DNA of 64,000 bases, from positions 160,001 to 224,000 of the forward strand of contig CAXXSR010000002.1 in NCBI GenBank assembly GCA_963662615.2. The letters run 5' to 3'. Position numbers and translations under genes: made by a program. The stretch comes from Dehalococcoidia bacterium (lineage in GTDB: Bacteria; Chloroflexota; Dehalococcoidia; Bin125). Below, piece by piece: positions 1,438 to 62,314 of this stretch. How positions within the stretch are numbered: the stretch's first letter is position 1; every line of letters begins with the position of its first letter. Under the pieces are notes generated by a model. That model did not search any database, was not told the origin of the DNA, and worked only from the letters and a program-made list of their open reading frames with translations.

Positions 1438-2322
1438 CTACCCGACCAGGGCCTCGACGCCGCCGACGATGTCGAGGAGATCCGAGGTGACCTGCTCTTG
1501 GCGCGCCTTGTTGTAGGCCAAGGTGAGATCCTCCACCATCTCGTTGGCGGCGTCGGTGGCGTTGCGCATGGCGACCATGCGGGCGGACTGCTCGCTGGCG
1601 GCGGCCTCCAGGACGGCGTGGTAGATCTGCATCTCCACGTAGCGGGGCAAGAGCGCGGCGAGCACGTCTTGGGGGCTGGGCTCGAAGATGTAGTCCACTT
1701 CGCGCGCGGGGCGGTCGGTCGCCTGGGGCGCCTCCACGGGCAGGATCTGGATGCTGACGGGGCGCTGCTGCACGGTGCTGACGAAGGCGCCATAGACGAC
1801 CAGGACCCGATCAACATCGCCGCGGATGTAGTCGTCCATGGCGAGGCGCGCGATGGGGCGGGTGTCGGCGAGGCTGGGGTAGTCGCCGAGGCGCTGAAAT
1901 TCGCCGCGGAAGGGCACGTTGAAGCGGCGAAAGTAGTCCAACCCTTTGCGACCGACGGGAATCATGGAGACCTCGCCGCTGCGCTCGGGGCCCAGGACGA
2001 TCTCGCCGGCGCGGCGCTGGAGGTTGGAGACGAGGCCGCCGGTGAGGCCGCGATCCGGCGTGATCAAGATGAGGGTGGTCTCCTGAATCTCACGGCGCTC
2101 CAGGAGCGGATGGAGGGGGGCGTCGCTGTCGCCGTCGCGGGTGGCGACGCCGGCTAGGTTGGCGAGGACGGTGCGCATGCGCTCGGCGTAGGGGCGCGCC
2201 GCCTGGGCGCGCTCCTGCGCGCGGCGCATCTTGGAGGCCGACACCAACTGGACGGCATTGGTGATCTTGGCCGTGTTGCGGACGGAGCGGATTCGCCGCC
2301 GGATCTCGCGCGTGTTGGGCAT
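1438..2322 (-). CDS. atpG: F1 ATP synthase gamma subunit
   Basis: REIRRRIRSV..KIT..SASKM, ASEQSARMVAM.NATD, YNKARQ motifs. Confidence 0.98.
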   Translation of the reverse strand: MPNTREIRRRIRSVRNTAKITNAVQLVSASKMRRAQERAQAARPYAERMRTVLANLAGVATRDGDSDAPLHPLLERREIQETTLILITPDRGLTGGLVSNLQRRAGEIVLGPERSGEVSMIPVGRKGLDYFRRFNVPFRGEFQRLGDYPSLADTRPIARLAMDDYIRGDVDRVLVVYGAFVSTVQQRPVSIQILPVEAPQATDRPAREVDYIFEPSPQDVLAALLPRYVEMQIYHAVLEAAASEQSARMVAMRNATDAANEMVEDLTLAYNKARQEQVTSDLLDIVGGVEALVG

Positions 2323-2351
2323 GCCGCGACGCCTAGCTCCTCACCCGGGTC

Positions 2352-3881
2352 CTAGAAGGGGACGGTGTCCTTGAAGGTCTTCAGCGCCTCTCGAAGCGAC
2401 TCCGCGGTGGCGTCATCCAGGTCGCCGCTGGTGCGAATCGCTTCGAGGGGCTCGGGACGGCTGCTGCCCAAGAACTCGCGCAGGGCCGCGCTGAAATCCG
2501 AGATCTTGTTGACGGCGACGTCGTCCAGGAAGCCTTCATTGGCGGCGAAGAGCATGACGGCTTGCTCCGCCATGGGGATCGGTGCGTTCTCCGGCTGCAC
2601 CAAGAGGCGGCTGAGCCGCTGGCCACGGTTGAGCTGGCGGCGGGTGGCGGCGTCCAGGTCGCTGGTGCCGAACTGGGCGAAGGCCTGGAGTTCGCGATAC
2701 TGGGCCATGTCCAAGCGCAACTGGCCGGCGACCCGGCGCATGGCGGGGCGCTGGGCGGCGCCGCCGACGCGACTGACGGAGATGCCCGAGTTGATCGCCG
2801 GCCGCTGGCCGGCGTTGAAGAGGTCGGTCTCCAGGAAGATCTGGCCGTCGGTGATGGAGATGACGTTGGTGGGGATGTAGGCGGAGACGTCACCCGCTTG
2901 CGTCTCGATGATGGGCAGCGCGGTGATGGATCCGCCGCCGTGGTCATCGTTGAGCTTGGCGGCGCGCTCCAGGAGGCGGGAGTGGAGGTAGAAGACGTCG
3001 CCGGGGTAGGCTTCGCGCCCCGGCGGGCGGCGCAGCAGCAGGGAGATCTGGCGATAGGCCCAGGCGTGCTTGCTGAGGTCGTCGTAGACGATGAGGACGT
3101 CTTTGCCCTGCTCCATGAAGTATTCGGCCATGGCGACGCCGGCGTAGGGCGCCAGGTACTGCTGGGCGGCGGACTCGGCCGAGGAGGCGTTGACGACGAT
3201 GGTGTGGTCCATGGCGCCGTGTTCCTCGAGCGTGGCGACGACCATGGCGATCTTCGCCTGCTTCTGGCCAATGGCCACGTAGACGCAGAGGAGGTCCTGC
3301 CCTTTCTGGTTGATCATGGTGTCCACGGCGAGAGCCGTCTTGCCGGTCTGGCGGTCGCCGATGATGAGTTCACGCTGGCCGCGGCCGATGGGGATCTGCG
3401 CATCGATGGCGAGGACGCCGGTCTGCACGGGCGTGTTGACCGGCGCGCGCGCGACGACGTTGGGGGCGATGCGCTCCAGCGGCCGCCGCTCCGCGATGTT
3501 GATCGCCCCTTTGCCGTCAATGGACTCGCCGAGGGCGCTGACAACCCGGCCGATCAGAGCGTCGCCGACCGGGACCTCGGCCACGCGCCCGGTGGAGCGG
3601 ACCTCGTCGCCCTCTTCGATGGGGCGGAAGTCGCCGATGATGACGGAGCCGACGATCTCCTCTTCCAGGTTGAGGACCATGCCCATGACGGGGCGGCCGG
3701 CGGCGTCGGTGCGGGAGAACTCCAGGAGCTCGCCGGCCAGAGCGCCGCCGAGCCCGTAGATGCGGGCGATGCCGTCTCCCGCTTGGACCACGGTGCCAGT
3801 CTCGGCCGCGACCACGGCGGTGTCGAAGCCTTCGATCTGGCGGCGGATGATGGAGGCGATCTCTTCCGGTCGAACGGCCAT
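2352..3881 (-). CDS. atpA: F1 ATP synthase alpha subunit
   Basis: GDRQTGKT Walker A and [23 protein letters not shown]. Confidence 0.99.
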
Positions 3882-3895
3882 GGCGCGTTCCCCTT

Positions 3896-4432
3896 CTAGC
3901 TGGCGATGCTGCGCTTGAGCGTTGCCAAGCGCGTCCGCACGCTGCCGTCCACGACCCGATCGCCAATCTGCACAAGGGCGCCGCCCAGGATCTCCTGGTT
4001 GACGGCCTCCTCCAGACGGACCTCGCCGGCGCCGGTAGAGCGGCGGATGGCGTCGACGATGGTGGCGCGGCCCTGGTCGGTCAGCGGCGTGGCGGTCGTG
4101 ACGCGTGCCACGGCAACGCCGCGGGCGACGTTGCAGAGCTCGTCGAAGGCGAGGGCGATCTCGCCGGCGATGCGAGTGCGGCCCTTGCGGACGAGCAGCT
4201 TGGCGAGGCTGACGGCCTTGGCGTCGGCGTTGGGCAGCGCCTGTTCCAGCACCTCGAATTTGCGGCCCGCCTCCACCTTGCTGCTCTGGAGAAACTGCGC
4301 CACGGTGGGCTCCGCCATCAGCGCTGCGAGCGAGGCCAGGTCGTCCTGCCAGCGCTCCAGGGCGTCCTCGTCGCGCGCGATGGCGAAGACGGCCTGGGCG
4401 TAGCGCTTGGCGGCGACATCACGGACCGGCAC
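3896..4432 (-). CDS. atpH: ATP synthase delta subunit
   Basis: AKRYAQA N-terminus and ILGG...[10 protein letters not shown]-terminus; operon position. Confidence 0.96.
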
Positions 4433-52306: not shown

Positions 52307-53224
52307 CTAGGCCGCCGAGGAGGGGTGAAGGCGAGCCGTCCCGGCCGAGGCGGTGTCCGCGAGCGGATCGGCGAAGATACGGGCAAGCACGTCGATGCCG
52401 TCGAAGGCGCGGGGCCCGGGACGACTGAACCAGGCGCCGGCGTCCACGGCCCAGACCGCGCCCTCCCTCACGGCCGGCAACTGTTGCCAGGACGGATTCG
52501 TCTCGAGTTGGCGCGCCTGCTGCACGACCTGAGGCTGGCTGAAGCCGCAGGGGAGCAGGATGACGACGTGGGGCTGCGTCTCGGCGATGGCATCCCAACT
52601 GGTCCGGGCCGACTTCTCGCCGGCGCGGCCGATGACGTCGATGCCGCCGGCGGCCTCGATCTGCTCCGGGACCCAGTGCCCCGCCGTGAAGGGCGGGTCC
52701 AGCCACTCCAGGGCAAGGACGCGTAGCAGCGGCTGCGGGGCAGTCGCGCGGGCGCGGGCGACGCGCGCGCGGAGAGCCGCCGTGACCTCCCGAGCCGCCT
52801 TGCCGCGGCCGGCGGCGTCGCCGACCTGTTCGATGGATTCAAAGATGCCCTCCAGGGTCAAGGGCGAGAGGGTGAGGACGCGCGCGCCCAGCTCCTCTTC
52901 GTGAGCGGCGCGGTGGACCTGGCTTTCGCTGACGGCGCAGACGTCGCAGAGGGCCTGGGTGAGGATGAGATCGGGGGCGAGGCGGCGCAGGAGGGGGGCG
53001 TCGATGGTGTAGGTGGAGCCGCCCTCGTGGAGGAGGGCGGCGACGGCACGGTCGATCTCGGCGGGGCGCATGTCCTGCATGTTGATGGCGGTGCGGGTCA
53101 GGACAGGGCGACCGACCACGGCCGGGGGGTAGTCGCACTCGTGGGAAACGCCGACGACTGCGTCGCCCAGTCCCAAGGCGAAGGCGATCTCGGTGGCGCT
53201 GGGGATGAGGGAGGCGATGCGCAT
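52307..53224 (-). CDS. Cobalamin/iron-siderophore binding (BtuF/TroA-like) protein
   Basis: RIASLIPSATE, GVSHECDYP and RPGPR motifs. Confidence 0.9.
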   Translation of the reverse strand: MRIASLIPSATEIAFALGLGDAVVGVSHECDYPPAVVGRPVLTRTAINMQDMRPAEIDRAVAALLHEGGSTYTIDAPLLRRLAPDLILTQALCDVCAVSESQVHRAAHEEELGARVLTLSPLTLEGIFESIEQVGDAAGRGKAAREVTAALRARVARARATAPQPLLRVLALEWLDPPFTAGHWVPEQIEAAGGIDVIGRAGEKSARTSWDAIAETQPHVVILLPCGFSQPQVVQQARQLETNPSWQQLPAVREGAVWAVDAGAWFSRPGPRAFDGIDVLARIFADPLADTASAGTARLHPSSAA

Positions 53225-53635
53225 TGCCGGCTCCTGGTAGTGGCGTCAGGAGGACCGCCCCGAGCATAGCGGTCGCGGGGAGATCCACTTCGCCCCCCTC
53301 TCTAGGGGCGGGCGATGGAGAGGGGACGCTGTGGGTCCGCCGGTGGAGCGCTGGCGACGCTGATGTCAGGGAGGTTCAGGACCGACATGGCGCCGCGGGA
53401 GCTTCGGGGGCGGGCGGCCGTGGCTGGGGGCTCTGGGTCCGGCAGGGAAGGGAGAGCCAAGACGAGATGAGACTCGCCAGCAGTAAAGCGGTCGTAAACT
53501 CCGTCACAATCGCTGTTGTAGTCGACAATATTGGCCACTTCTCGGTTGACAGCCTGATCAGCGCCCCTACACACTGTTCAGGAAATCACAAAGTGTGGCG
53601 GCGGTGGGATCGGTCGGTTACCGGGACCGCTCCCG

Positions 53636-53760
53636 CGCGATGTACCGAATCCTTCCAGCGGGAAGGACCGGGGGACCCGAGTCGGATGGGGTGAATTCCG
53701 CGCAGGCGGATAGGGCTCACCAGCCCGAACCCGGCAGCGAACCCCGGAGGCGCAGGCGGG
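53636..53760 (+). ncRNA. Cyclic di-AMP (ydaO/yuaA) riboswitch
   Basis: Conserved blocks in the expected order: GAATCC...GGA.CGGGGGACCC...TGGGGTGAAT...TAGGG...CCCGAACCCG.CAGC.AACCCCG.AGGC. Confidence 0.9.
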
Positions 53761-53812
53761 TGTGGGGCGGCGGCGAGCGACCGGGAGTTCGCGGAAAGAG
53801 AGGGCTCCGTCC

Positions 53813-54022
53813 ATGGCCGTGCTATCACCCCCCCACTGTCCCCGCTGTTCCGGATCCATGCTGTCAGAATCAGACGCGCACGGGGCGTACAGCAGCTGCC
53901 TGGCGTGCGGATACGTCTACGAAAGTCACGTCATCTCCGTCTTTGAGCTGGAGCAGGAGCAGACGGTTGAAGAGGGGCGCCAACGCCGCCGCCAGCCGTC
54001 GCACGGGAAGCTCCGTCTCTAG
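53813..54022 (+). CDS. Small zinc-ribbon protein (CPRC...CLACG) with basic tail
   Basis: Two CxxC pairs; purine-rich RBS; directly behind the riboswitch. Confidence 0.75.
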   Translation: MAVLSPPHCPRCSGSMLSESDAHGAYSSCLACGYVYESHVISVFELEQEQTVEEGRQRRRQPSHGKLRL

Positions 54023-54409
54023 CCGCGTCCCCCGTTGAGGTTCCTGTCTGGCCGGGGCTGCGATTGCCTTCCCAGTCGTTGCGGGGAGGGCGACCCTGTG
54101 GGTGCGCCGGCGGCGCCTGAGGCACTGTCTGAGGCGGTGCCTCAGACAGTGGCGGCTCGGACATGGCAGCGTCGAGAGAGTTCGCCTTGGGGGTCGCTGC
54201 GGGGGTCGGCCCGTGAGCCGAGCGGCCCAAGGGGGTTGCCGCAGTGGCGCATAGGGAGCCCAGGGGGCGGTTTTAGGAGGATGCACTAGGCGAGGTAGGC
54301 CGATCCCTGATATGCGACCGGGGGAGCGCCAGGGAGAATGGCGCTCAGACGGTCAGGGAAGACGCGGCCGAAATCGGCTGCGGGACCCCAGAGGAAAGGC
54401 TGCGTCACC

Positions 54410-54613
54410 ATGGTGCAATGCCGCCACTACTGGCTTCTTTCACCACCGCAGTCTGACAAGGTGATCGGCCACTGCAAGCGGTGCGATTCGGAGCGGATCT
54501 TTCCTGCTCGTCTGGACGACACGGACCGCAGCAATGACTACCTGGACCTGGCGGGGGGATCTGCCTCCTCAAGGGACCTGGCAGGGTCGTGGAGCGAGCG
54601 TGTCGCGTCGTGA
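54410..54613 (+). CDS. Small zinc-ribbon protein (CxHxW...CxxC)
   Basis: CRHYW...GHCKRC..ER.F; GAGGAAAGG RBS. Confidence 0.7.
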   Translation: MVQCRHYWLLSPPQSDKVIGHCKRCDSERIFPARLDDTDRSNDYLDLAGGSASSRDLAGSWSERVAS

Positions 54614-54725
54614 TGGCGCAGGCGCGCGCAAGGATTGCCGGCAGATTGGCCTGGGGGTAGAGTAGCGCTCCCATCAGGGGGCGGGCCCGGGACGAGCGGT
54701 CAGAGATCAGGGAGGCGTAAACGCA

Positions 54726-55463
54726 GTGGATACTCCGCAACCGACGAATGAGCCCGGCCTGAGCGCACCGCGACCGATCCGGGCGCGGGTTCGCGTGTTG
54801 ATCGTGGACGATCACGCGGTCCTGCGGCAGGCGTTGCGATTGCTGCTGGAGAGCCACGACGAGATTGAGGTTGTGGACGACGTGTCCAACGGGCGCGAGG
54901 CGGCGGCGGCGGCGGAAGAGCTGGACCCGGATGTGGTGCTGATGGACGTGGTCATGCCGGGCCTCAACGGCCTGGACGCCACGCGCCAGATTCGCAAGCG
55001 CTGCCCCAACACGCGCGTGCTGATCCTCTCCGGCTACGAAGAGGAGGAGCAGATCATTGAAGCGCTGCGTGCGGGGGCGAGCGGCTACCTGATCAAGGAA
55101 TCGGACATTGGCGAGCTGCTGCTGGCGATCCAAGCGGTGTCGCGCGGGAACACGTACTTCTCGTCGTCGCTGTCGGAGCGCGACGAGGGCAACGATTTTC
55201 TCCTGCGAGCGCGCAGCGGCGACGCGAAGGCGGGCTTCGATCGGCTCACCGATCGCGAGCGGGAGGTGCTGCAACTGATTGCGGAAGGCCATTCCAATCA
55301 GTCGATTGCGGATCAGCTGGTCATCAGCGTGAAAACGGTGGAGGCGCACAAAGCGCACATCATGAGCAAGCTGGGGGCTCGGAACCGCACGGACCTGATC
55401 CGGTACGCGATCCGGCGGGGCATCATTCGCTTGGACCCGGTGCCGCGGCTGCAAGCCGGCTAG
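54726..55463 (+). CDS. NarL/LuxR family response regulator
   Basis: VDDH, LMD and GYLIK receiver residues; LTDREREVL...SVKTVEAH HTH. Confidence 0.95.
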   Translation: MDTPQPTNEPGLSAPRPIRARVRVLIVDDHAVLRQALRLLLESHDEIEVVDDVSNGREAAAAAEELDPDVVLMDVVMPGLNGLDATRQIRKRCPNTRVLILSGYEEEEQIIEALRAGASGYLIKESDIGELLLAIQAVSRGNTYFSSSLSERDEGNDFLLRARSGDAKAGFDRLTDREREVLQLIAEGHSNQSIADQLVISVKTVEAHKAHIMSKLGARNRTDLIRYAIRRGIIRLDPVPRLQAG

Positions 55464-55481
55464 ATCCCCGAGCCGTCCCTC

Positions 55482-55778
55482 GTGAGCGATTCCAGGGCCG
55501 TTTCGATGCCGACTATCCTCATCGCCAGCGCCATGCCCGCGGGCTGGCTGGGCATCCAGCTGCGGCGCCTGGAGCGCTTGCTGTCGCTGCAGCGCGCCCA
55601 TGCGGAAGAGTTGAACGCGAGCGGGCACCGCCTCCTCCAGCAGGCCACGTTCACCACGTACATGGAGTGTCGCGAGCTGGGCGGGGAGCAGCTCGCCGCC
55701 GAGATGCTGGCGGCGCATCAGGCGAGCGTGGGAGCGGACCTCAAGTCCGGCGCGGCGCCCTCAGCGAGGAGCGGCTAA
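55482..55778 (+). CDS. Small hypothetical helical protein
   Basis: Codirectional ORF with typical codon usage between the regulator and flbD; start may be ATG at 55506. Confidence 0.55.
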   Translation: MSDSRAVSMPTILIASAMPAGWLGIQLRRLERLLSLQRAHAEELNASGHRLLQQATFTTYMECRELGGEQLAAEMLAAHQASVGADLKSGAAPSARSG

Positions 55779-56086
55779 CCGCTCCGCCTCAGCAACCACC
55801 GCCTTCGCCTTGTTGCCAACGCCCGGCCAGCCGGGCGCTTTTGATCTCTGCCGAGCGTTGCGGGGGAGCGCGGGGCGAGCCATTGGGGGCGCGCGCCAGA
55901 GCGGTCAGGGCACAGGGGCAAGAGCCTCGGGAATCTCCCAATGTGGAGGCGCAGGCACCCGCTCACATACTGATGGCATTGACGCTGATGACCTTGGCGC
56001 TGATGCCGTTGGTGGGGGCGACCGTGTGCTTGCGCGGAAAGACCGCCCCTGACTTGGCATGATTGCAGTGAAGTGCTGGAGGCGGC

Positions 56087-56323
56087 GTGATTGAGCTGAC
56101 GAGGTTCAACGGCGCGTCGGTCTGGGTGAATCCGGACCTCCTGCAGTACGTGGAGGCGAATCCGGACACGCGGATCACGCTGACGACGGGGACGAAGTTG
56201 GTGGTGCTGGAGGAGCCGGGAGTGATTGTCCAGCGAGTAGCCCTGTACCGGCGGTCGTTGTTGCAGGACCAGCTCAGTCCGGAAGCGGCATTCAAGTTGT
56301 TGCAACGGTCGGAGGACGCCTAG
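56087..56323 (+). CDS. flbD: Flagellar FlbD family protein
   Basis: MIELTR.NG....NPD...VE..PDT.ITL.TG.K.VV.E. Confidence 0.92.
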   Translation: MIELTRFNGASVWVNPDLLQYVEANPDTRITLTTGTKLVVLEEPGVIVQRVALYRRSLLQDQLSPEAAFKLLQRSEDA

Positions 56324-56326
56324 GCG

Positions 56327-57124
56327 ATGGATACGGCGACGCTGATCGGCCTGCTGCTGGGATTCGTTGGCGTTTTTAGCGGCAACATGATGGAGGGCGG
56401 CTCGCCGACGGCGCTGATCAACATGCCGGGGTTCCTGATCGTGGTGGTCGGATCGCTGGGGGCGGGGATCATGGCCGTGCCCATGGACACGGTCAAACGG
56501 CTGCCGAAATACATGGGCAAGGCGTTTAAAGAGCAATCGGTGGACACGGCCAAGATCGTGCCGCTGTTCGAGAAGATGGCGGACAAGGCGCGTCGAGAGG
56601 GCCTGCTCTCCTTGGAGGAGGAGGCCAACAACATTGATGACGAATTCACGCGCAAGGGGATGCAGCTGATCGTGGACGGGACGGACCCGGAGGCGCTGCG
56701 TGAGATCATGGAGACGGAGATCACCTCCATGGAGGAGCGCCACCACCAAGGCAGCGGCTTCTTTGAGATCATTGGCGGGTTCGCGCCGACGCTGGGGGTG
56801 CTGGGCACGATCATGGGGCTGATCTCGGTCCTGAGCCACTTGGACGACAGCGCGAACTTGGGGCACGGCATTGCCGTGGCCTTCGTGGCGTCGTTCTACG
56901 GCGTCTTCACCGCGAACCTGATCTGGTTGCCGCTGGCCAACAAACTGAAGCTGAAGAGCAAAAAGGAAGTGCAGATGCGGGAGGCGGTGCTGGAAGGCTT
57001 GATGGCGATTCAGGCCGGGGACAATCCGCGCATCGTCAAGGACAAATTGCAGGGCTACCTGGCACCGTCCGACCGGGGCGCCGCTGAGGAGGCAGAGACG
57101 GCGGCCAGCGCGGAGGCGGCGTGA
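56327..57124 (+). CDS. motA: Flagellar stator MotA
   Basis: ARREGLLSLE, APTLG.LGT..GL and ANL.WLP motifs. Confidence 0.96.
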   Translation: MDTATLIGLLLGFVGVFSGNMMEGGSPTALINMPGFLIVVVGSLGAGIMAVPMDTVKRLPKYMGKAFKEQSVDTAKIVPLFEKMADKARREGLLSLEEEANNIDDEFTRKGMQLIVDGTDPEALREIMETEITSMEERHHQGSGFFEIIGGFAPTLGVLGTIMGLISVLSHLDDSANLGHGIAVAFVASFYGVFTANLIWLPLANKLKLKSKKEVQMREAVLEGLMAIQAGDNPRIVKDKLQGYLAPSDRGAAEEAETAASAEAA

Positions 57125-57885
57125 GCAAGCGGGCCAAGAAGGCCGAGGCCCACGGCGGCGACGAGCGCTGGCTGATCACGTACGCGGACCTGGTGACCCT
57201 CCTGTTCGCGCTGTTCATTGTGCTCTTTGCCTCAGCCGAGCCGAACGGCGACAAGCTGGCGCGAACGGCGCAGTCGATCTCGGAAGCGTTCAACGTCGGC
57301 ATTCTCAGCGGCAGTGGCGGGGCCGGTTCCCTGTTCGACGAGGACGGTGGGACCGTGGCGCCGGATTTTGGCACCGTGGAGCGCAAGGAGTTCCAGCTGA
57401 TCAGCGACGAACTCACGGAGGCGGCGTTGGAGCTGCAGGTCTACGAGCAGGTGCAGGTGCGGTTGTCGGACGAGGGGATCGTGGTGTCGCTCTCCAACAA
57501 CCTGCTGTTCGCTCCGGCCAGCGCGGTGATGAACGACGACGCGCGCCCGCTCTTGGATCGCGTGGGGGCGACGCTGGCGGGTCTTCCCAACTTGATCCGG
57601 GTGGAGGGGCACACCGACGACATTCCGGTGAACTCGGGCGAATTCGCGAGCAACTGGGAGCTGTCCACGTCGCGGGCCACCGCCGTGTTGCGCTACTTGG
57701 TGGACACGAGCGGCGCGACGCCGAGCCGCATCCACGCGGCCGGGTACGCCCATTTTCAGCCGGTGGCCGACAACGCGACGCCGGAGGGGCGGGCGCAGAA
57801 CCGACGAGCGGACATTGTGATTCTGTACTCGACTGCGGCCATCGGCAGCGAGGCGGGGGCCAGCATCCCTGTGGGGGAGGAGTAA
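57121..57885 (+). CDS. motB: Flagellar stator MotB (H+-type FIVL signature)
   Basis: WLITYADLVTLL and OmpA-like GHTD...NWELS..RA...NRR motifs. Confidence 0.96.
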   Translation: MSKRAKKAEAHGGDERWLITYADLVTLLFALFIVLFASAEPNGDKLARTAQSISEAFNVGILSGSGGAGSLFDEDGGTVAPDFGTVERKEFQLISDELTEAALELQVYEQVQVRLSDEGIVVSLSNNLLFAPASAVMNDDARPLLDRVGATLAGLPNLIRVEGHTDDIPVNSGEFASNWELSTSRATAVLRYLVDTSGATPSRIHAAGYAHFQPVADNATPEGRAQNRRADIVILYSTAAIGSEAGASIPVGEE

Positions 57886-57888
57886 ACC

Positions 57889-58374
57889 ATGCTCGCAAAT
57901 CGCACGGTGCGCATGGGTCTGGTGGGCGTGCTGATCGTAGTGATCGGCTACATGTTCGTGCTGCCGCGGATGCAATCAAGCGACGCGGAGGCGGCCGTGC
58001 CGGAGCACCCGAACCCGGGACCCACGTACACGCTGGAGGCGAAGGTCTACAACTTGCTGACGCCGGCGGCGCAGACTCAGCGCTACTTGAAGGTGGGCAT
58101 GGTGTTCGAGTTTGAAGCGGAAGATCCAGCGTTCTTCGAACTGGAAGGGGAGGCGCTGGCCGTGGAGCTGGAACATTTCGCGGAGACGTTAGCGCCGAAG
58201 CGGCCGATCCTGGAGGACGCCGTGGGCGGCCTGGTCGCCAGCAAGACGCTGGACGATATTTCGACGGCGCTGGGGCGACAACAGTTCAAGGACGAACTGA
58301 GGGAGGCGGTGGGGGAGATTGTAGGGGAACCCCAGCTTCTGACCGTGTATCTGACCGAGTTCGTGTTCCAGTAG
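57889..58374 (+). CDS. fliL: Flagellar basal body-associated FliL
   Basis: N-terminal TM, NL....RYLK and VYLTEFVFQ motifs. Confidence 0.88.
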   Translation: MLANRTVRMGLVGVLIVVIGYMFVLPRMQSSDAEAAVPEHPNPGPTYTLEAKVYNLLTPAAQTQRYLKVGMVFEFEAEDPAFFELEGEALAVELEHFAETLAPKRPILEDAVGGLVASKTLDDISTALGRQQFKDELREAVGEIVGEPQLLTVYLTEFVFQ

Positions 58375-58376
58375 CC

Positions 58377-59495
58377 ATGGCCGACACCGACAACCTCAGC
58401 CAGCGAGAAATTGACAGCCTGCTGAAGTCCGGGCCCACGGATGCGGCGGACCAGCCGACCGCGCCGCGGCCGGGATCCCGTCTGGCCGGGCTGGCCAAGA
58501 CGGTGAAGCGCTATGACTTTCGGCGCCCGGACAAGTTCTCCAAGGAGCACCTGCGCACGCTGCAGGCGGTGCACGAATCGTTCGCACGGCTGGTGGCGTC
58601 CTCGCTGTCGAACCAACTGCGGACCGATGTGGAGATGAAGGTGGCGTCGATTGATCAAGGTCTCTACGAGGAGTACGTGGAGCAAACGGTCGGTCCGGTA
58701 TTCGTGGGCTTGGTGCGGATGGCGCCTCTGGACGGCTCAATTGTGATCGAGTTCGGGCAGGACCTGGGCTTGGTGATCGTGGACCGGCTCTTAGGGGGTC
58801 CGGGAGCGTTGTTGGAACACGGTCATGAGGTGACGGACATTGAACTGGAGTTGGTGCGCGGCTTCGGCGGCACGCTGGCGCGGAACTTGGGAGAGGCCTG
58901 GGAGAACCTGGCGAAGGTGGAGCCGACGATCTCCGATATGCACCAGGACATCCAGCAGGCGCGGCTGGCCCCGGCCTCCGAGGTGGTGATCATGGTCTTC
59001 ATGGAGGTCACGGTCGTGGGCGTGGTGGGGGGCATGAGCATCTGCACGCCGTTCAGCGTGCTGGAGCCCCTCCTGTCGCGCCTCACCGCGAACGTCTGGG
59101 TGGGGACGGGCGGCGCGAAGAACGTGCCGGCGGAGAGCCGAAAGAAGCTGCAGCGGCAACTTGAGCGGACGCCGACATCGATCGGGGTGGAACTGGGAAG
59201 CGCGGCGGTGCGCACCGCCGATCTGGCGCAGTTGCACGTGGGCGACGTGATCCGCTTGGAGGGGCTGGCGACGCGGCCAGTGGCGGTGAGCATGGGCAGG
59301 ATCCGCAAGTGGTACGGCCGTCCCGGCGTGGTCTCCGGGCGCGTTTCTGTGCAGTTGGAGGAGTGGGCGCCGGCGGAGGCGCCGAACCCCACGTCCGCGG
59401 ACGAGCCGGGGGCGTCCGCCGGGCCCAGCGAGGAGCCGGCGAACGTGGTCCCGCTGCCCGCGACACAGGAAAGCGAGGACGCCCGTGCCGCCTGA
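58377..59495 (+). CDS. fliM: Flagellar motor switch FliM
   Basis: LSQREIDSLL, YDFRRPDKFSKE and DRLLGG motifs. Confidence 0.95.
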   Translation: MADTDNLSQREIDSLLKSGPTDAADQPTAPRPGSRLAGLAKTVKRYDFRRPDKFSKEHLRTLQAVHESFARLVASSLSNQLRTDVEMKVASIDQGLYEEYVEQTVGPVFVGLVRMAPLDGSIVIEFGQDLGLVIVDRLLGGPGALLEHGHEVTDIELELVRGFGGTLARNLGEAWENLAKVEPTISDMHQDIQQARLAPASEVVIMVFMEVTVVGVVGGMSICTPFSVLEPLLSRLTANVWVGTGGAKNVPAESRKKLQRQLERTPTSIGVELGSAAVRTADLAQLHVGDVIRLEGLATRPVAVSMGRIRKWYGRPGVVSGRVSVQLEEWAPAEAPNPTSADEPGASAGPSEEPANVVPLPATQESEDARAA

Positions 59496-60534
59496 TCCGG
59501 CGATCTCTCCCGAGGCATTGATGGAAGACGAGACGTTCGTGGACTTCGGACGCCAACTGGGGGACGTGGCGCCGGTGGTGGCAGAGAGCGTGTTGAGCCG
59601 GCGTATCAGCTTCGCCAACGGCGCTTTGCGCCCGACGAGCGGAGCGGACATTGAGGAGGCGTTCGGCGCTCTGCCGCACGTGGCGGTGGAGACGCGCATT
59701 GCGCTGTCGGAGTCGGAGGCGTACCTGGGGACGGTGCTGCTGCCGCTGGCGACGGTGACGGCGCTGCTGGGCGCGGCGGGCGAGGCCGAGCCGGCGGCTG
59801 CCGACGAGGCCGCGGCCCTGCGAGAACAAATGGAAGCGAAGGCGCCGGAGTTCGTGAGCCTGCTCACGCTCATGCTCTTCACGGACTCACCGCTGCGTGC
59901 GGAGATCAGTGTGTCGGAGGTCCGCGGCGACTCCATTGAGGAGAGCGTGGGCATGCTGGTGGACAGCGCCGGCAATCCGACGTTGTACCGCTTGGACGCC
60001 GATCTGCAGTTTGGCGAGGACGAGCGGGGCGCGCTGACGCTCATTCTCCCGGCGGCGTTGCCGAGCGCCCTGGTGCGCGGGTTGACGGGCGCGGGCAAGA
60101 GCGCGGCGAACGCGAGTGGAACGCGGCCGCGCGACGAGGAAGGAAACGAACCAGCGCCGCGCCGGGCCATTGATCTGGATGACGACGAGGACGACGAGGA
60201 GTCCATCCCGATCTCGCCGTTGCAGTTCCCGAGCCTTCAGGCGGACGCGGGCGGCGGCGGTCCCCCGCAGCCGCTCGATCTCATCCTGGACGTCACGATG
60301 CGGGTCAGCGTGGAGCTGGGCAGGGCGACGCTGACGGTCCAGGAGATCTTGGCGCTGGGCCCGGGCTCCGTGGTGGAGCTGGACAAGCTGGCGGGCGAGC
60401 CGGTGGACATCCTGGTGAATGAGCGCCTGATTGCGCGGGGCGAGGTGGTCATGGTGGATGAAAACTTCGGCGTGCGGGTGACCGAGATCCTGTCACCGGG
60501 GGCGAACGCCGCCGCGATGAGGCGCGCCGCATGA
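59485..60534 (+). CDS. fliN: Flagellar switch FliN/FliY-like protein
   Basis: C-terminal LDV...VELG...GSVVELDKLAGEP...GEVV.VDENFGVR; long N-terminal domain. Confidence 0.9.
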   Translation: MPPDPAISPEALMEDETFVDFGRQLGDVAPVVAESVLSRRISFANGALRPTSGADIEEAFGALPHVAVETRIALSESEAYLGTVLLPLATVTALLGAAGEAEPAAADEAAALREQMEAKAPEFVSLLTLMLFTDSPLRAEISVSEVRGDSIEESVGMLVDSAGNPTLYRLDADLQFGEDERGALTLILPAALPSALVRGLTGAGKSAANASGTRPRDEEGNEPAPRRAIDLDDDEDDEESIPISPLQFPSLQADAGGGGPPQPLDLILDVTMRVSVELGRATLTVQEILALGPGSVVELDKLAGEPVDILVNERLIARGEVVMVDENFGVRVTEILSPGANAAAMRRAA

Positions 60535-61481
60535 ACGGCGGCGGGCGGCGGAGCATCAAGCCGATCTGGTTGGTGGGCGGGATCGTGGGCCTGGGCCTGA
60601 TCGTGCTGCTGGCCGGTCCCGTCTCCAGTGTCACCAGTGACCGCAGCGAGCCGCTCTTCGCCGAGCGCCCTGACAGCGATGAGCTGGAGCGGCTGGGCAC
60701 GTTCGCGGCGAACGAGAGCGGGGACGAGCGGTCTCTCGACGCTGCGGCGGGAGGAGACGGCGAGGCGTCATTGGTTGAGGCGGTGGGGGTTGAGACGGTG
60801 GGGGTTGAGACGGTGGCGGCGGCGGGCGCCGCGCAGGCCGCGGCGCCGGCGGGCGCCGGCGAGGGCGCGTCCGCGGAGACGGGGGCGGGGACAGACTCCT
60901 CCACTTCGATTATCGGCGCGAAAGTCGGCAGCTTTAGCACTGGCGATATTTTTGACCTGCTTTGGCGGTTGGCGCTGGTGGGCGGCATTATCTGGCTCTC
61001 CATCTTTCTGCTGCGGAAGTTCGTGGCGCGCAGCGGTCGGACGCAGAGCAATTCGGGCGCGCTGAAAGTGTTGGAGACGATTGGGCTGGCGAACAACCGG
61101 CTGATCTCCCTCCTGGAGGCGGGCGATCGGGTGCTGGTGGTGGGGAGCACGCCGACGCATGTGGCCCTGCTGGCCGAGCTGGACGACCCCGAGGTGGTCT
61201 CGGCGCTGCGCAGCGACGCGGATCGCACGAGTCCCAAGGTGGCGACGCTGGGGGAGATGATGCGGGGCTACGGCGAGCGGGCGGGCCATCAGTTCTCGCG
61301 GCGTTTCAGCCGTCCCCGCGCCGAGAGGAGCGCAGGGGCGAGCGAGCCGGGCGGCGATCTGACGCCCATCCTCCAGCAGCTCCTCAAGGCGCAGGCAGAG
61401 ATTGCGTTGAGCGCGGAGCGCTTGGAGCGGCCCTCAGCGGCGACGGCGGCGCCGTCGCCGGCCGGATCGGAGGGCGAGTGA
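60531..61481 (+). CDS. fliO: Flagellar biosynthesis FliO/FliZ family protein
   Basis: TM plus LKVLET..L.......L.E.G..VLVVG; position before fliP. Confidence 0.8.
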   Translation: MNGGGRRSIKPIWLVGGIVGLGLIVLLAGPVSSVTSDRSEPLFAERPDSDELERLGTFAANESGDERSLDAAAGGDGEASLVEAVGVETVGVETVAAAGAAQAAAPAGAGEGASAETGAGTDSSTSIIGAKVGSFSTGDIFDLLWRLALVGGIIWLSIFLLRKFVARSGRTQSNSGALKVLETIGLANNRLISLLEAGDRVLVVGSTPTHVALLAELDDPEVVSALRSDADRTSPKVATLGEMMRGYGERAGHQFSRRFSRPRAERSAGASEPGGDLTPILQQLLKAQAEIALSAERLERPSAATAAPSPAGSEGE

Positions 61482-62314
61482 CCAGATGGGCACAGATGCC
61501 GCTGCGGATCGGGCGGCCCCGTCTGTCGCGCCCGAGGGTCGCGGGGCGCTGGGGCAAGAAGCGCACGGTCGCGCTGCTGTTGGTGACGGTGGCCCTGGCG
61601 CTGACGAGCTGCGTGGAGGGCGACCCGGGCCTGAGCATTACGGTGGGCGGCTCCGGCGAAGAGGGCGTGGCCTCCGACGGCACCACGGTGGGCTTCAACA
61701 GCGTGCAGCTGTTGGGGCTGCTCACGGTCCTGGCGCTGGCACCAGCGTTCCTGATCATGGTGACGTCATTCACGCGGACGATTGTGGTGCTGTCGCTGGT
61801 GCGGAATGCGATCGGTGTGCCGCAGCTGCCCCCGCACCAAGTGCTGCTGGGCCTGGCGCTCTTTCTCACCATCTTTGTGATGGCGCCGACGTTCGAGGAG
61901 ATCAACGAGACGGCGTTGCAGCCGTACTTCCGGGGGGAGCTGTCGCAGGGGGAGGCGTTCAAGATCGGCCAGGAGCCGCTGCGCGAGTTCATGTTCAAGC
62001 AGACGCGCGAGCAGGATCTGGGCCTCTTCGTCAAGTTGAGCGGGATGGAGCGCCCGGGGACGCCGGCGGATGTGCCGACACACGTGCTGATTCCGGCCTT
62101 CATCATCTCGGAGCTGAAGGCGGCGTTTCAGATGGGCTTTATTGCCTTCGTGCCGTTTCTGATCATCGACATTGTGGTGAGCAGCGCGTTGCTATCGATG
62201 GGGATGATGATGCTGCCGCCGGTGCTGATCTCGCTGCCCTTCAAGATTCTGCTGTTCGTGCTGGTGGACGGTTGGTTCCTGATCGTGGGCTCGCTGGCGG
62301 GCAGCTTTAGCTGA
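61478..62314 (+). CDS. fliP: Flagellar export protein FliP
   Basis: TSFTR, PAF.ISEL and MGMMMLPP...SLPFK.LLFVLVDGW motifs; GTG start at 61478. Confidence 0.96.
   Translation: MTRWAQMPLRIGRPRLSRPRVAGRWGKKRTVALLLVTVALALTSCVEGDPGLSITVGGSGEEGVASDGTTVGFNSVQLLGLLTVLALAPAFLIMVTSFTRTIVVLSLVRNAIGVPQLPPHQVLLGLALFLTIFVMAPTFEEINETALQPYFRGELSQGEAFKIGQEPLREFMFKQTREQDLGLFVKLSGMERPGTPADVPTHVLIPAFIISELKAAFQMGFIAFVPFLIIDIVVSSALLSMGMMMLPPVLISLPFKILLFVLVDGWFLIVGSLAGSFS

Follow-up and report, generated by a model that had tools for sequence, protein, structure and literature searches.

The riboswitches of the RF00379 class combine an aptamer with an intrinsic terminator and act as OFF switches, such that high c-di-AMP leads to less expression. 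Signaling to motility is normally the role of c-di-GMP, and in Clostridioides difficile a c-di-GMP riboswitch upstream of the flgB operon directly attenuates the flagellar genes. In Bacillus subtilis, DegU and SwrA act upstream of the fla/che operon, which carries the sigma-28 gene. The targets listed for the RF00379 class in PMC3766115 are transporters, osmoprotection genes, and cell-wall enzymes.

The window, by which we mean the whole 64-kb stretch of Dehalococcoidia DNA that was analyzed, carries a riboswitch of this class ahead of two miniprotein genes (zr1 and zr2), a NarL/FixJ-type response regulator, a small ORF (orf98), and a flagellar operon (Table 1). We lean towards an account in which the riboswitch targets zr1 directly, the regulator is the flagella-linked part of the locus, the flbD operon is transcribed from its own promoter, and any effect on motility is at most indirect.

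Table 1. Features of the riboswitch-to-flagella locus, in positions of the window.
Feature	Position	Strand	Basis
Promoter-like element of the zr1 leader: TTGACA 53546-53551, 18 nt, CACACT 53570-53575	53546..53575	+	Read from sequence
c-di-AMP riboswitch aptamer (RF00379), predicted	53633-53767	+	Rfam model match
zr1, 69-aa Zn-ribbon miniprotein, CPRC...CLAC	53813-54022	+	ORF, alignment, predicted structure
Perfect 13-bp hairpin, 3-nt loop, no T-run, ~100 nt past the zr1 stop	54123..54151	+	Hairpin scan, fold
zr2, 67-aa miniprotein, C-x-H...C-x2-C	54410-54613	+	ORF
NarL/FixJ-type response regulator (receiver + GerE HTH)	54726-55463	+	Pfam
orf98, 98-aa small protein	55482-55778	+	ORF
Terminator-like hairpin, 7 G-C pairs 55820-55837, then CTTTTGATCT	55820..55847	+	Terminator scan, own script
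flbD promoter-like region: palindromic GGGAATCTCCC 55929-55939, 26 nt, CATACT 55966-55971	55929..55971	+	By eye
flbD, motA, motB, fliL, fliM, fliN-type, fliO, fliP	56087..62314	+	All over Pfam cut-offs
fliQ/fliR/flhB-sized ORFs, membrane-like sequence	After fliP to window end	+	Size and sequence character

The riboswitch aptamer and the zr1 leader

A sequence-only reading of this DNA had reported a clear ydaO/yuaA aptamer starting at 53636. The Rfam covariance search agrees, placing the start at 53633: the match to RF00379 has a score of 68.3 bits (gathering score 38) and an E value of 9.9e-14, covers model positions 1-134 of 134, and is the sole Rfam match within the window. R1, a model built in this analysis, gives the same RNA 100.2 bits. 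The genome also encodes a DAC domain (PF02457; G000:C1:627386, 140 bits), indicating that the host makes c-di-AMP, and the predicted aptamer would be expected to respond to it. Three further RF00379 copies are present in this genome, for a total of four; one of the three precedes a radical-SAM ORF, a putative KamA-like, osmolyte-type target.

The TTGACA of the promoter-like site upstream of the aptamer, and its spacing, are common to the same-family genomes G009, G004, and G008 (alignment A6), in which the second hexamer reads G/C/A-AGAAT; the site is absent from the output of a consensus promoter scan. Folding energy supports no claim of structure for the whole leader (53585-53850, z -0.33), the region 53760-53830, from the end of the aptamer into zr1, folds no better than shuffles (z -0.70), and no T-run terminator was found after the window aptamer.

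The window riboswitch could be read as a decaying, non-regulating relic, in which case the conserved promoter would drive zr1 constitutively, the situation in most of the family, but we consider this quite improbable. It is the weakest of the four copies in its genome (68 vs. 75-97 bits), two of its P1 pairs are flagged as non-standard, the U-tract terminator is missing, and it is the only one of 28 distinct instances to carry G at the junction CAGC-U-AACC, where the other 27 have U. Relatives provide further signs of such decay: in none of 20 same-family loci did the search find a riboswitch ahead of zr1, even with the threshold relaxed to E≤1, R1 finds none in 55 family-like loci, an aptamer remnant in G004 is recognizable yet undetectable by the model, and G009 and G008 bear deletions. 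The window copy nevertheless lies 30 bits over the gathering score, spans the full model, and, the junction substitution apart, retains every column invariant in alignment A2 (11 riboswitch sequences, the window copy among them, so that its invariant columns are kept in this copy by definition). In addition, G010 of the same family retains an 87-bit copy that likewise has no T-run, so an alternative expression platform, such as RBS masking or Rho, may operate in this high-GC (68%) family.

zr1 as the conserved target of the riboswitch

In relatives of the window, zr1 is the conserved target of the riboswitch. R1 finds the element directly upstream of zr1 in all 25 distant loci (L151-L175), and the Rfam model places it there in G010, G025, G026, G030, G034, and G039. 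A run of at least five T residues follows the aptamer in 23 of the 30 zr1 leaders that were read manually. In 16 of 23 stand-alone loci, a hairpin with a T-rich tail lies 20-66 nt past the stop codon of zr1; the same holds for five of the 13 flagellar-linked loci, and a sixth has such a hairpin at +193, while a crude detector registered no terminator after zr1 in the other seven of these 13. The riboswitch-zr1 unit is thus usually insulated by a terminator on each side, and those directly after zr1 can be strong (e.g., L237). Given the behavior of the class, the element would be an OFF switch in these relatives, with high c-di-AMP favoring the terminator and lowering zr1 expression.

In the window itself, neither the aptamer nor zr1 is followed by a canonical terminator, so read-through into the regulator may occur. 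The perfect hairpin that follows zr1 here may be a terminator or a stability element; the fold of 54100-54165 reaches -37.3 kcal/mol (z -3.1, with 0 of 200 shuffles folding as well), and the hairpin is not conserved in G009, G010, or G004.

Homologs of the zr1 protein fall into 86 clusters at E≤0.001 and share an invariant C-terminal tail, RQRRRQPSHGKLRL (alignment A1); a whole-genome search for this tail motif returned no believable frame elsewhere. The protein matches the TFIIB and RPB9 Zn ribbons weakly and under Pfam cut-offs (PF08271, at 23.5 bits vs. a gathering score of 29, and PF02150), and many of the homolog clusters bear a precomputed PF08271 label. The ribbon fold is supported by an AF2 model in which three strands form the ribbon (residue blocks 11-40 average pLDDT 86-92), followed by a helix and then a low-confidence tail. 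Searches with zr1 gave sub-threshold rows only in NCBIfam, chance-level rows only in a sequence-profile search of the PDB, and nothing at E≤0.001 in Foldseek against the PDB, where the top rows (ZifS and RNA-polymerase ribbon subunits) had E values of 0.07 or worse; a literature search on ZifS/TTHA0897 found nothing relevant. The earlier description of two Zn-ribbon ORFs therefore stands for zr1, on the predicted ribbon and the sub-cut-off Pfam matches. For zr2 it extends to the motif, with no match in Pfam or NCBIfam; residues C4, H6, C22, and C25 are kept in its paralogs, and a Zn ribbon is plausible for this protein. A search of the ESM Atlas returned unnamed Chloroflexota or viral clusters only.

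Distribution of zr1 relative to flagella

zr1 is not specific to flagellated bacteria. Of 401 class genomes, 140 have a strong match, roughly one-third of the Dehalococcoidia sampled, and by our own count FlbD is absent from 112 of these 140; none of the counts given here is corrected for kinship. Within the same family, zr1 is found in 23 of 24 genomes and FliP in one, which for zr1 is the pattern that the sequence-only reading had named as counting against its proposal. Even among the 28 flagellated genomes that bear zr1, 13 have it either on a different contig from flbD or at a distance of over 100 kb. This pattern, together with the osmolyte-type reading of the copy ahead of the radical-SAM ORF, would also suit an account in which zr1 belongs to a general osmotic/K+ regulon of c-di-AMP and sits beside the regulator and the flagellar genes through inherited gene order, devoid of functional meaning. 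We regard that account as somewhat unlikely, as the block persists in three families despite changes in its flanks, and as orf98 accompanies zr1 in some genomes and the regulator in others (e.g., G030 and G034), which ties the members of the cassette together.

The NarL regulator and its cassette

The regulator matches Response_reg (PF00072, 106.4 bits) and GerE (PF00196, 82.2 bits) and lies below every NCBIfam equivalog cut-off. Its translation shows an acidic pair (IVDDH) and the Asp of LMDV, and its phospho-acceptor residue is presumably that of the NarL/FixJ family. The window encodes no HisKA_3 kinase, the nearest lying at G000:C2:112173, so the regulator is locally an orphan, as had been supposed.

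Among 41 relatives, orthologs of the regulator track the flagellar genes. In 21 of 35 further flagellated genomes they precede flbD in the same orientation (49-84% identity), and the regulator has this position also in G000 (the genome of the window), G039, and G030. No ortholog was found in 21 of 23 same-family genomes without FliP (21 of 24 overall had no match at E≤1e-45). The regulator is kept without detectable FliP or FHIPEP in G010 (84% complete) and G025 (91% complete), and the non-flagellated G004 contains it as fragments only. From this association, flagellar promoters would be its predicted targets.

Fifteen of 38 flagellated genomes, from families f1, f16, and f38, have the order riboswitch-zr1-(zr2)-regulator-flbD; these are G000, G039, and 13 of the 35 further genomes, in which R1 finds the riboswitch upstream of zr1 in the flagellar locus. 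The linkage to flagellar genes noted earlier is thus conserved and not a one-off, while the upstream flanks of the riboswitch have no genes in common, even a weak PBP2 match occurring in only one of 13 loci. In G004, G009, G010, and five loci of family f38, an ortholog of zr2 is found between zr1 and the regulator, and in G030 one lies upstream of the regulator; three zr2 paralogs are present in the window's own genome, and a homolog search returned two clusters only. A block just upstream of zr2 is conserved in G000, G009, and G004 and could be an internal promoter.

The orf98 protein is modeled by AF2 as three helices (block-mean pLDDT 94-98). Neither Pfam nor NCBIfam offers a family for it, and Foldseek against the PDB gives no fold match at E≤0.001. 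Of 24 stand-alone riboswitch-zr1 loci, 20 encode orf98 downstream of zr1 and in the same orientation, as detected by an HMM built from alignment A3, and the remaining four have less than 1.7 kb of sequence downstream. A complex prediction for orf98 (A5) with zr1 (A1) gave a score of 0.00, which carries no weight for or against an interaction.

These arrangements bear on the model of the sequence-only reading, in which the riboswitch heads a single zr1-zr2-regulator-orf98 transcript, so that c-di-AMP would gate motility via the amount of the flagellar regulator. We consider this model unlikely. It would account for the common strand of the four genes, for a T-tailed terminator-like site that appears only after orf98, for the pairing of zr1 with orf98 in the stand-alone loci when zr2 and the regulator lie between them here, for the spacing of 18 nt between regulator and orf98 (in G009 the two frames overlap by 4 nt), and for the recurrence of the order through changing upstream flanks. 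It is harder to reconcile with the strong terminators directly behind zr1 in kin, with the -37 kcal/mol hairpin in the gap after zr1 in the window, and with the possible internal promoter before zr2. Two genomes also dissociate the parts: G009 has the same cassette and flagellar genes without any riboswitch, and in G030 the riboswitch-zr1 unit is located more than 1 Mb from the zr2-regulator-orf98-flbD locus.

The flagellar operon and its promoter region

The + strand order that had been read from zr1 and zr2 through the regulator and the small ORF to flbD-motAB-fliLMNOP is upheld, and the gaps given as about 300-390 nt measure 387 nt (zr1-zr2) and 308 nt (orf98-flbD). A FliA/WhiG sigma gene lies past the window at G000:C2:229186. 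The hairpin at 55820 is the only terminator-like site on either strand of 53000-57000, where shuffles yield a mean of 2.0, making the scan alone weak, and its fold (-14.7 kcal/mol, z -0.95) is no better than shuffles.

By eye, most flagellated loci show a GGGG-nn-TTCCCC-GATAAC-like element followed by TAnnnT at 60-130 nt before flbD, some of them without the regulator nearby; a whole-genome regex for the motif gave scattered, mostly non-flagellar matches. The GGGG-nn-TCCCC palindrome was considered as an operator of the regulator and rejected, being inseparable from a sigma-factor promoter element because the motif is also present in flagellated loci that have no regulator close by.

The hairpin at 55820-55837 and the promoter-like region separate the cassette from flbD, and zr1 is mostly insulated in kin, contrary to the suggestion of a c-di-AMP-gated tier for motility. 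Taken together with the spread of zr1 beyond flagella, these features make gating of motility at best indirect; any link is probably an indirect one.

A proposed role for the locus

In the reading that we favor, the RNA at 53633-53767 would be a c-di-AMP riboswitch that acts on the zr1 gene directly. The genes zr1, zr2, the regulator, and orf98 would form an old Dehalococcoidia cassette that heads the flbD-mot-fli operon in flagellated lineages. Where flagella are lost, the regulator and zr2 would be lost too, one pseudogene stage having been seen, and zr1 and orf98 would stay, suggesting that the regulator is linked to flagella and that zr1 and orf98 have a wider role. The flagellar operon of the window most likely starts at its own promoter behind the terminator-like hairpin, and its genes would not be attenuated by c-di-AMP directly; an effect on motility, if any, would be mediated by the zr1 protein or by read-through that reaches zr2, the regulator, and orf98. 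A more specific idea, which we offer tentatively and hold to be doubtful, is that zr1 is a small, c-di-AMP-repressed regulatory protein that docks on a conserved partner via its basic tail and, in flagellated Dehalococcoidia, acts with the adjacent NarL regulator, and perhaps zr2 or orf98, on flagellar expression.

A riboswitch class known for K+/osmolyte transport and cell-wall genes here has a regulatory-looking miniprotein family as its conserved target, and the regulator is a concrete candidate for a flagellar regulator of Chloroflexota. The recurring cassette offers a testable route from c-di-AMP to motility, and if the zr1-regulator idea is true, this would be a c-di-AMP-to-motility pathway operating through a riboswitch. 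Motile Tepidiforma isolates exist (PMC10284905), so that knock-outs and transcript mapping may be feasible. Among the papers covered by our literature searches, none describes these findings.

Comparison with known systems

The locus resembles described members of the RF00379 class in its full-length model match, in having kin with an aptamer and intrinsic terminator, and in the DAC cyclase of its host. Unlike the targets named in PMC3766115, the controlled gene encodes a Zn-ribbon protein of 69 residues that belongs to no named family, and the window copy differs from the class in having no terminator and one unique junction substitution. As predicted, zr1 is similar to the ribbons of TFIIB, RPB9, and TFS and to ZifS (PDB 8yoz) in its four Cys in two knuckles and its three-stranded ribbon, but its invariant basic tail has no counterpart there, and all matches to these proteins are below thresholds. 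By analogy, the position of a NarL-family regulator and small proteins ahead of a flagellar operon recalls DegU and SwrA at the B. subtilis fla/che operon; here the regulator adjoins flbD, the FliA/WhiG gene lies downstream, and no sequence resemblance to SwrA is apparent in zr1, zr2, or orf98. Like the flgB operon of C. difficile, the locus has a cyclic-dinucleotide riboswitch at the head of flagellar genes, but unlike that system, the riboswitch is of the c-di-AMP class, a miniprotein is its direct target, and the flagellar operon has a promoter-like region of its own.

Riboswitch and gene order

A covariance-model search bore out the c-di-AMP riboswitch call of the sequence-only reading, returning a full-length match to RF00379 that scores above the gathering score and is the sole Rfam match anywhere in the 64-kb window. 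Two miniproteins (zr1 and zr2), a NarL/FixJ-type response regulator and a 98-aa ORF (orf98) follow on the same strand, and then flagellar genes. ORFs 3' of fliP have sizes that would suit fliQ, fliR and flhB. No HisKA_3 kinase was found within the window, and a FliA/WhiG sigma gene lies 5 kb beyond its end (G000:C2:229186, on the second contig of the source genome).

Riboswitch, cassette and flagellar genes in the window
Feature	Position	Strand	Description
c-di-AMP riboswitch RF00379	53633-53767	+	full model length, 68.3 bits vs gathering score 38 (Rfam)
zr1	53813-54022	+	69 aa, Zn ribbon, CPRC...CLAC
zr2	54410-54613	+	67 aa, C-x-H...C-x2-C
regulator	54726-55463	+	Response_reg+GerE
orf98	55482-55778	+	98-aa ORF
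FlbD, MotA, MotB, FliL, FliM, FliN-type, FliO, FliP	3' of orf98	+	each above Pfam cut-off

The source genome (G000; two contigs, 2.01 and 0.65 Mb, 68% GC) encodes a DAC-domain cyclase and carries three further RF00379 copies. One of these (locus L002, G000:C1:64650, 92.6 bits) is followed by about 1 kb without an obvious gene, with four scattered copies of a 36-nt repeat (64-100% identity) at locus positions 1986-2666. Another (locus L003, G000:C1:1599952) precedes a radical-SAM ORF (1663-3117) scoring 29.1 bits, slightly under the Pfam cut-off of 29.5; presumably this ORF resembles enzymes of the lysine-2,3-aminomutase type and would then fall among the conventional osmolyte-type riboswitch targets.

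The zr1 family as a probable riboswitch target

Homologues of zr1 form 86 clusters, a family without a name, in which a Zn ribbon is followed by an acidic linker and the invariant C-terminal tail RQRRRQPSHGKLRL. AF2 models the ribbon with confidence and the tail as floppy, and the best rows of a fold search were ZifS and RNA-polymerase ribbon subunits, every one below significance. In six relatives, drawn from other genera or families, the Rfam model locates a riboswitch immediately 5' of zr1. A covariance model built from 11 instances, R1, was run on 80 loci chosen by zr1 similarity. All 25 loci whose zr1 shares 61-72% identity gave a riboswitch hit some 50 nt ahead of the gene; the 55 loci of the same family type as the window gave none. 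An Rfam scan at E<=1 likewise detected none in 20 same-family loci.

Of 30 leaders, 23 carry a GC hairpin plus five or more consecutive T on the 3' side of the aptamer, the predicted form of a classic OFF platform; the T-run is missing in the window, G010, G034, G025 and three others. Of 23 stand-alone loci, 16 have a second terminator-like hairpin, 20-66 nt past the stop codon of zr1. Together these hairpins, after the aptamer and after zr1, argue that zr1 is a putative monocistronic unit under riboswitch control in most relatives.

Cassette make-up and probable erosion

An orf98 HMM detected this gene 3' of zr1, in the same orientation, at 20 of the 24 stand-alone riboswitch loci; the remaining four have less than 1.7 kb of downstream sequence. 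The interval between them may hold nothing, a SAM methyltransferase, zr2 and the regulator (window, G009, G010), or the regulator alone (G025). In the relative G004, for which searches recovered neither FliP nor FHIPEP, all that is left of the regulator between intact zr2 and orf98 is a pair of fragments (matches of 57 and 64 aa, L066 2552-2869), apparently a pseudogene stage in the erosion of the cassette; eight other same-family genomes retain zr1 and orf98 alone. An ancestral, later eroded cassette fits the ancestral flagella with many losses described for the class in the accessible text of the Tepidiforma paper (PMC10284905), in which the terms "response regulator", "LuxR", "c-di-AMP" and "riboswitch" do not occur.

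Structure prediction gave a confident three-helix bundle for orf98, with no fold match in the structure search. Matching no named family, zr2 belongs to a multi-copy small-ORF family (C-(H/K)-H-(H/Y)-W ... G-x-C-(K/R)-x-C-G ... F) with several copies per genome, both in the source genome (G000:C1 674362-674469, 979422-979550 and 1468602-1468709) and in many relatives. At L237 (family f16), the zr1 terminator and the regulator are separated by an ABM-domain (antibiotic biosynthesis monooxygenase-like) ORF at 3527-3931.

Association with flagellar genes

The expectation that the miniproteins would be scarcer in non-motile relatives failed for zr1: in raw genome counts uncorrected for kinship, as are all those for flagella, zr1 and the regulator, zr1 occurs in 23 of 24 same-family genomes and FliP in one (8 of 41 relatives overall). 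Across 401 class genomes, FlbD was found in 39 (38 above cut-off) and a strong zr1 match (E<=8.7e-25) in 140, the figure left once 55 weak matches are taken from the 195 at E<=1e-8; the unpublished genome G259 is among the 140. Of the 39 FlbD genomes 28 carry zr1, which leaves 112 of the zr1 genomes without FlbD; zr1 is not a flagellar gene.

Of 24 same-family genomes, 21 gave no regulator match at E<=1e-45. Five FliP-positive relatives have orthologs with at least 57% identity, and so do G010 (84% complete) and G025 (91% complete), in neither of which FliP or FHIPEP turned up. In 35 further FlbD genomes the 7 kb upstream of flbD were examined: 21 have a co-oriented regulator ortholog (49-73% identity) there, and 13 (families f16 and f38) have the complete series of riboswitch, zr1, (zr2), regulator and flbD. 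Adding G000 and G039 brings the series to 15 of 38 flagellated genomes, and the proposed linkage to flbD is thus conserved. Genes 5' of the riboswitch are not common to the 13 loci (a weak PBP2 match in one only). The relative G009 has the cassette and flagellar genes and no riboswitch, and in G030 the riboswitch-zr1 unit lies far from zr2-regulator-orf98-flbD. FHIPEP (FlhA) was not found in G009 (91% complete), though FlbD through FliP adjoin its cassette, an absence that may reflect partial loss or a gap in the assembly.

Transcript structure and state of the aptamer

In the window, a perfect 13-bp hairpin lacking a T-run follows zr1 (z -3.1), and the only T-tailed terminator-like site stands after orf98. 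The sequence-only reading had the riboswitch head a single mRNA running through the regulator, an arrangement that we regard as unlikely. Between the terminator-like site and flbD is a two-part motif (55929-55971; GGGAATCTCCC, 26 nt, then CATACT), whose counterparts, judged by eye, occur upstream of flbD in most flagellated loci whether or not the regulator is nearby. The motif pairs a palindrome GGGG-nn-TTCCCC, which GATAAC often follows, with a TAnnnT box some 26 nt further on, and stands 60-130 nt 5' of flbD in loci L083, L091, L093 and L206-L240. We read it as a candidate promoter region of the flagellar operon's own; its GATAA part resembles the -10 element of sigma-28 promoters. Just upstream of zr2, a hairpin at 54316-54354 (-29 kcal/mol, z -4.1, 0/200 shuffles) holds in its loop a GAGAATG block conserved in G000, G009 and G004, and could be a regulatory element or internal promoter region.

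A conserved promoter-like site (53546-53575) is present in the zr1 leader. The aptamer there is the lowest-scoring of the four G000 copies, carries a G at a position that is U in 27 of 28 instances, and belongs to a decay series within the family (G010 intact, G000 deviant, G004 relic, G009 and G008 deleted). Because of these features and the missing T-run, some weight is due to a decayed riboswitch with constitutive zr1 expression, which we nevertheless hold to be distinctly improbable.

Conclusions

The account that we consider reasonably probable is that c-di-AMP would act via the riboswitch on zr1 only, that the regulator would be a flagella-linked transcription factor receiving its own input, and that any c-di-AMP influence on motility would be indirect. 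No description of a zr1-type target or flagella-linked placement of a c-di-AMP riboswitch was found in the literature searched, including the accessible part of PMC3766115; the class's original descriptions and supplementary gene lists were outside that search and may already list a hypothetical gene of this kind. The riboswitch class itself is already known; what appears to be new is its zr1 target and its conserved placement beside a flagella-linked regulator.
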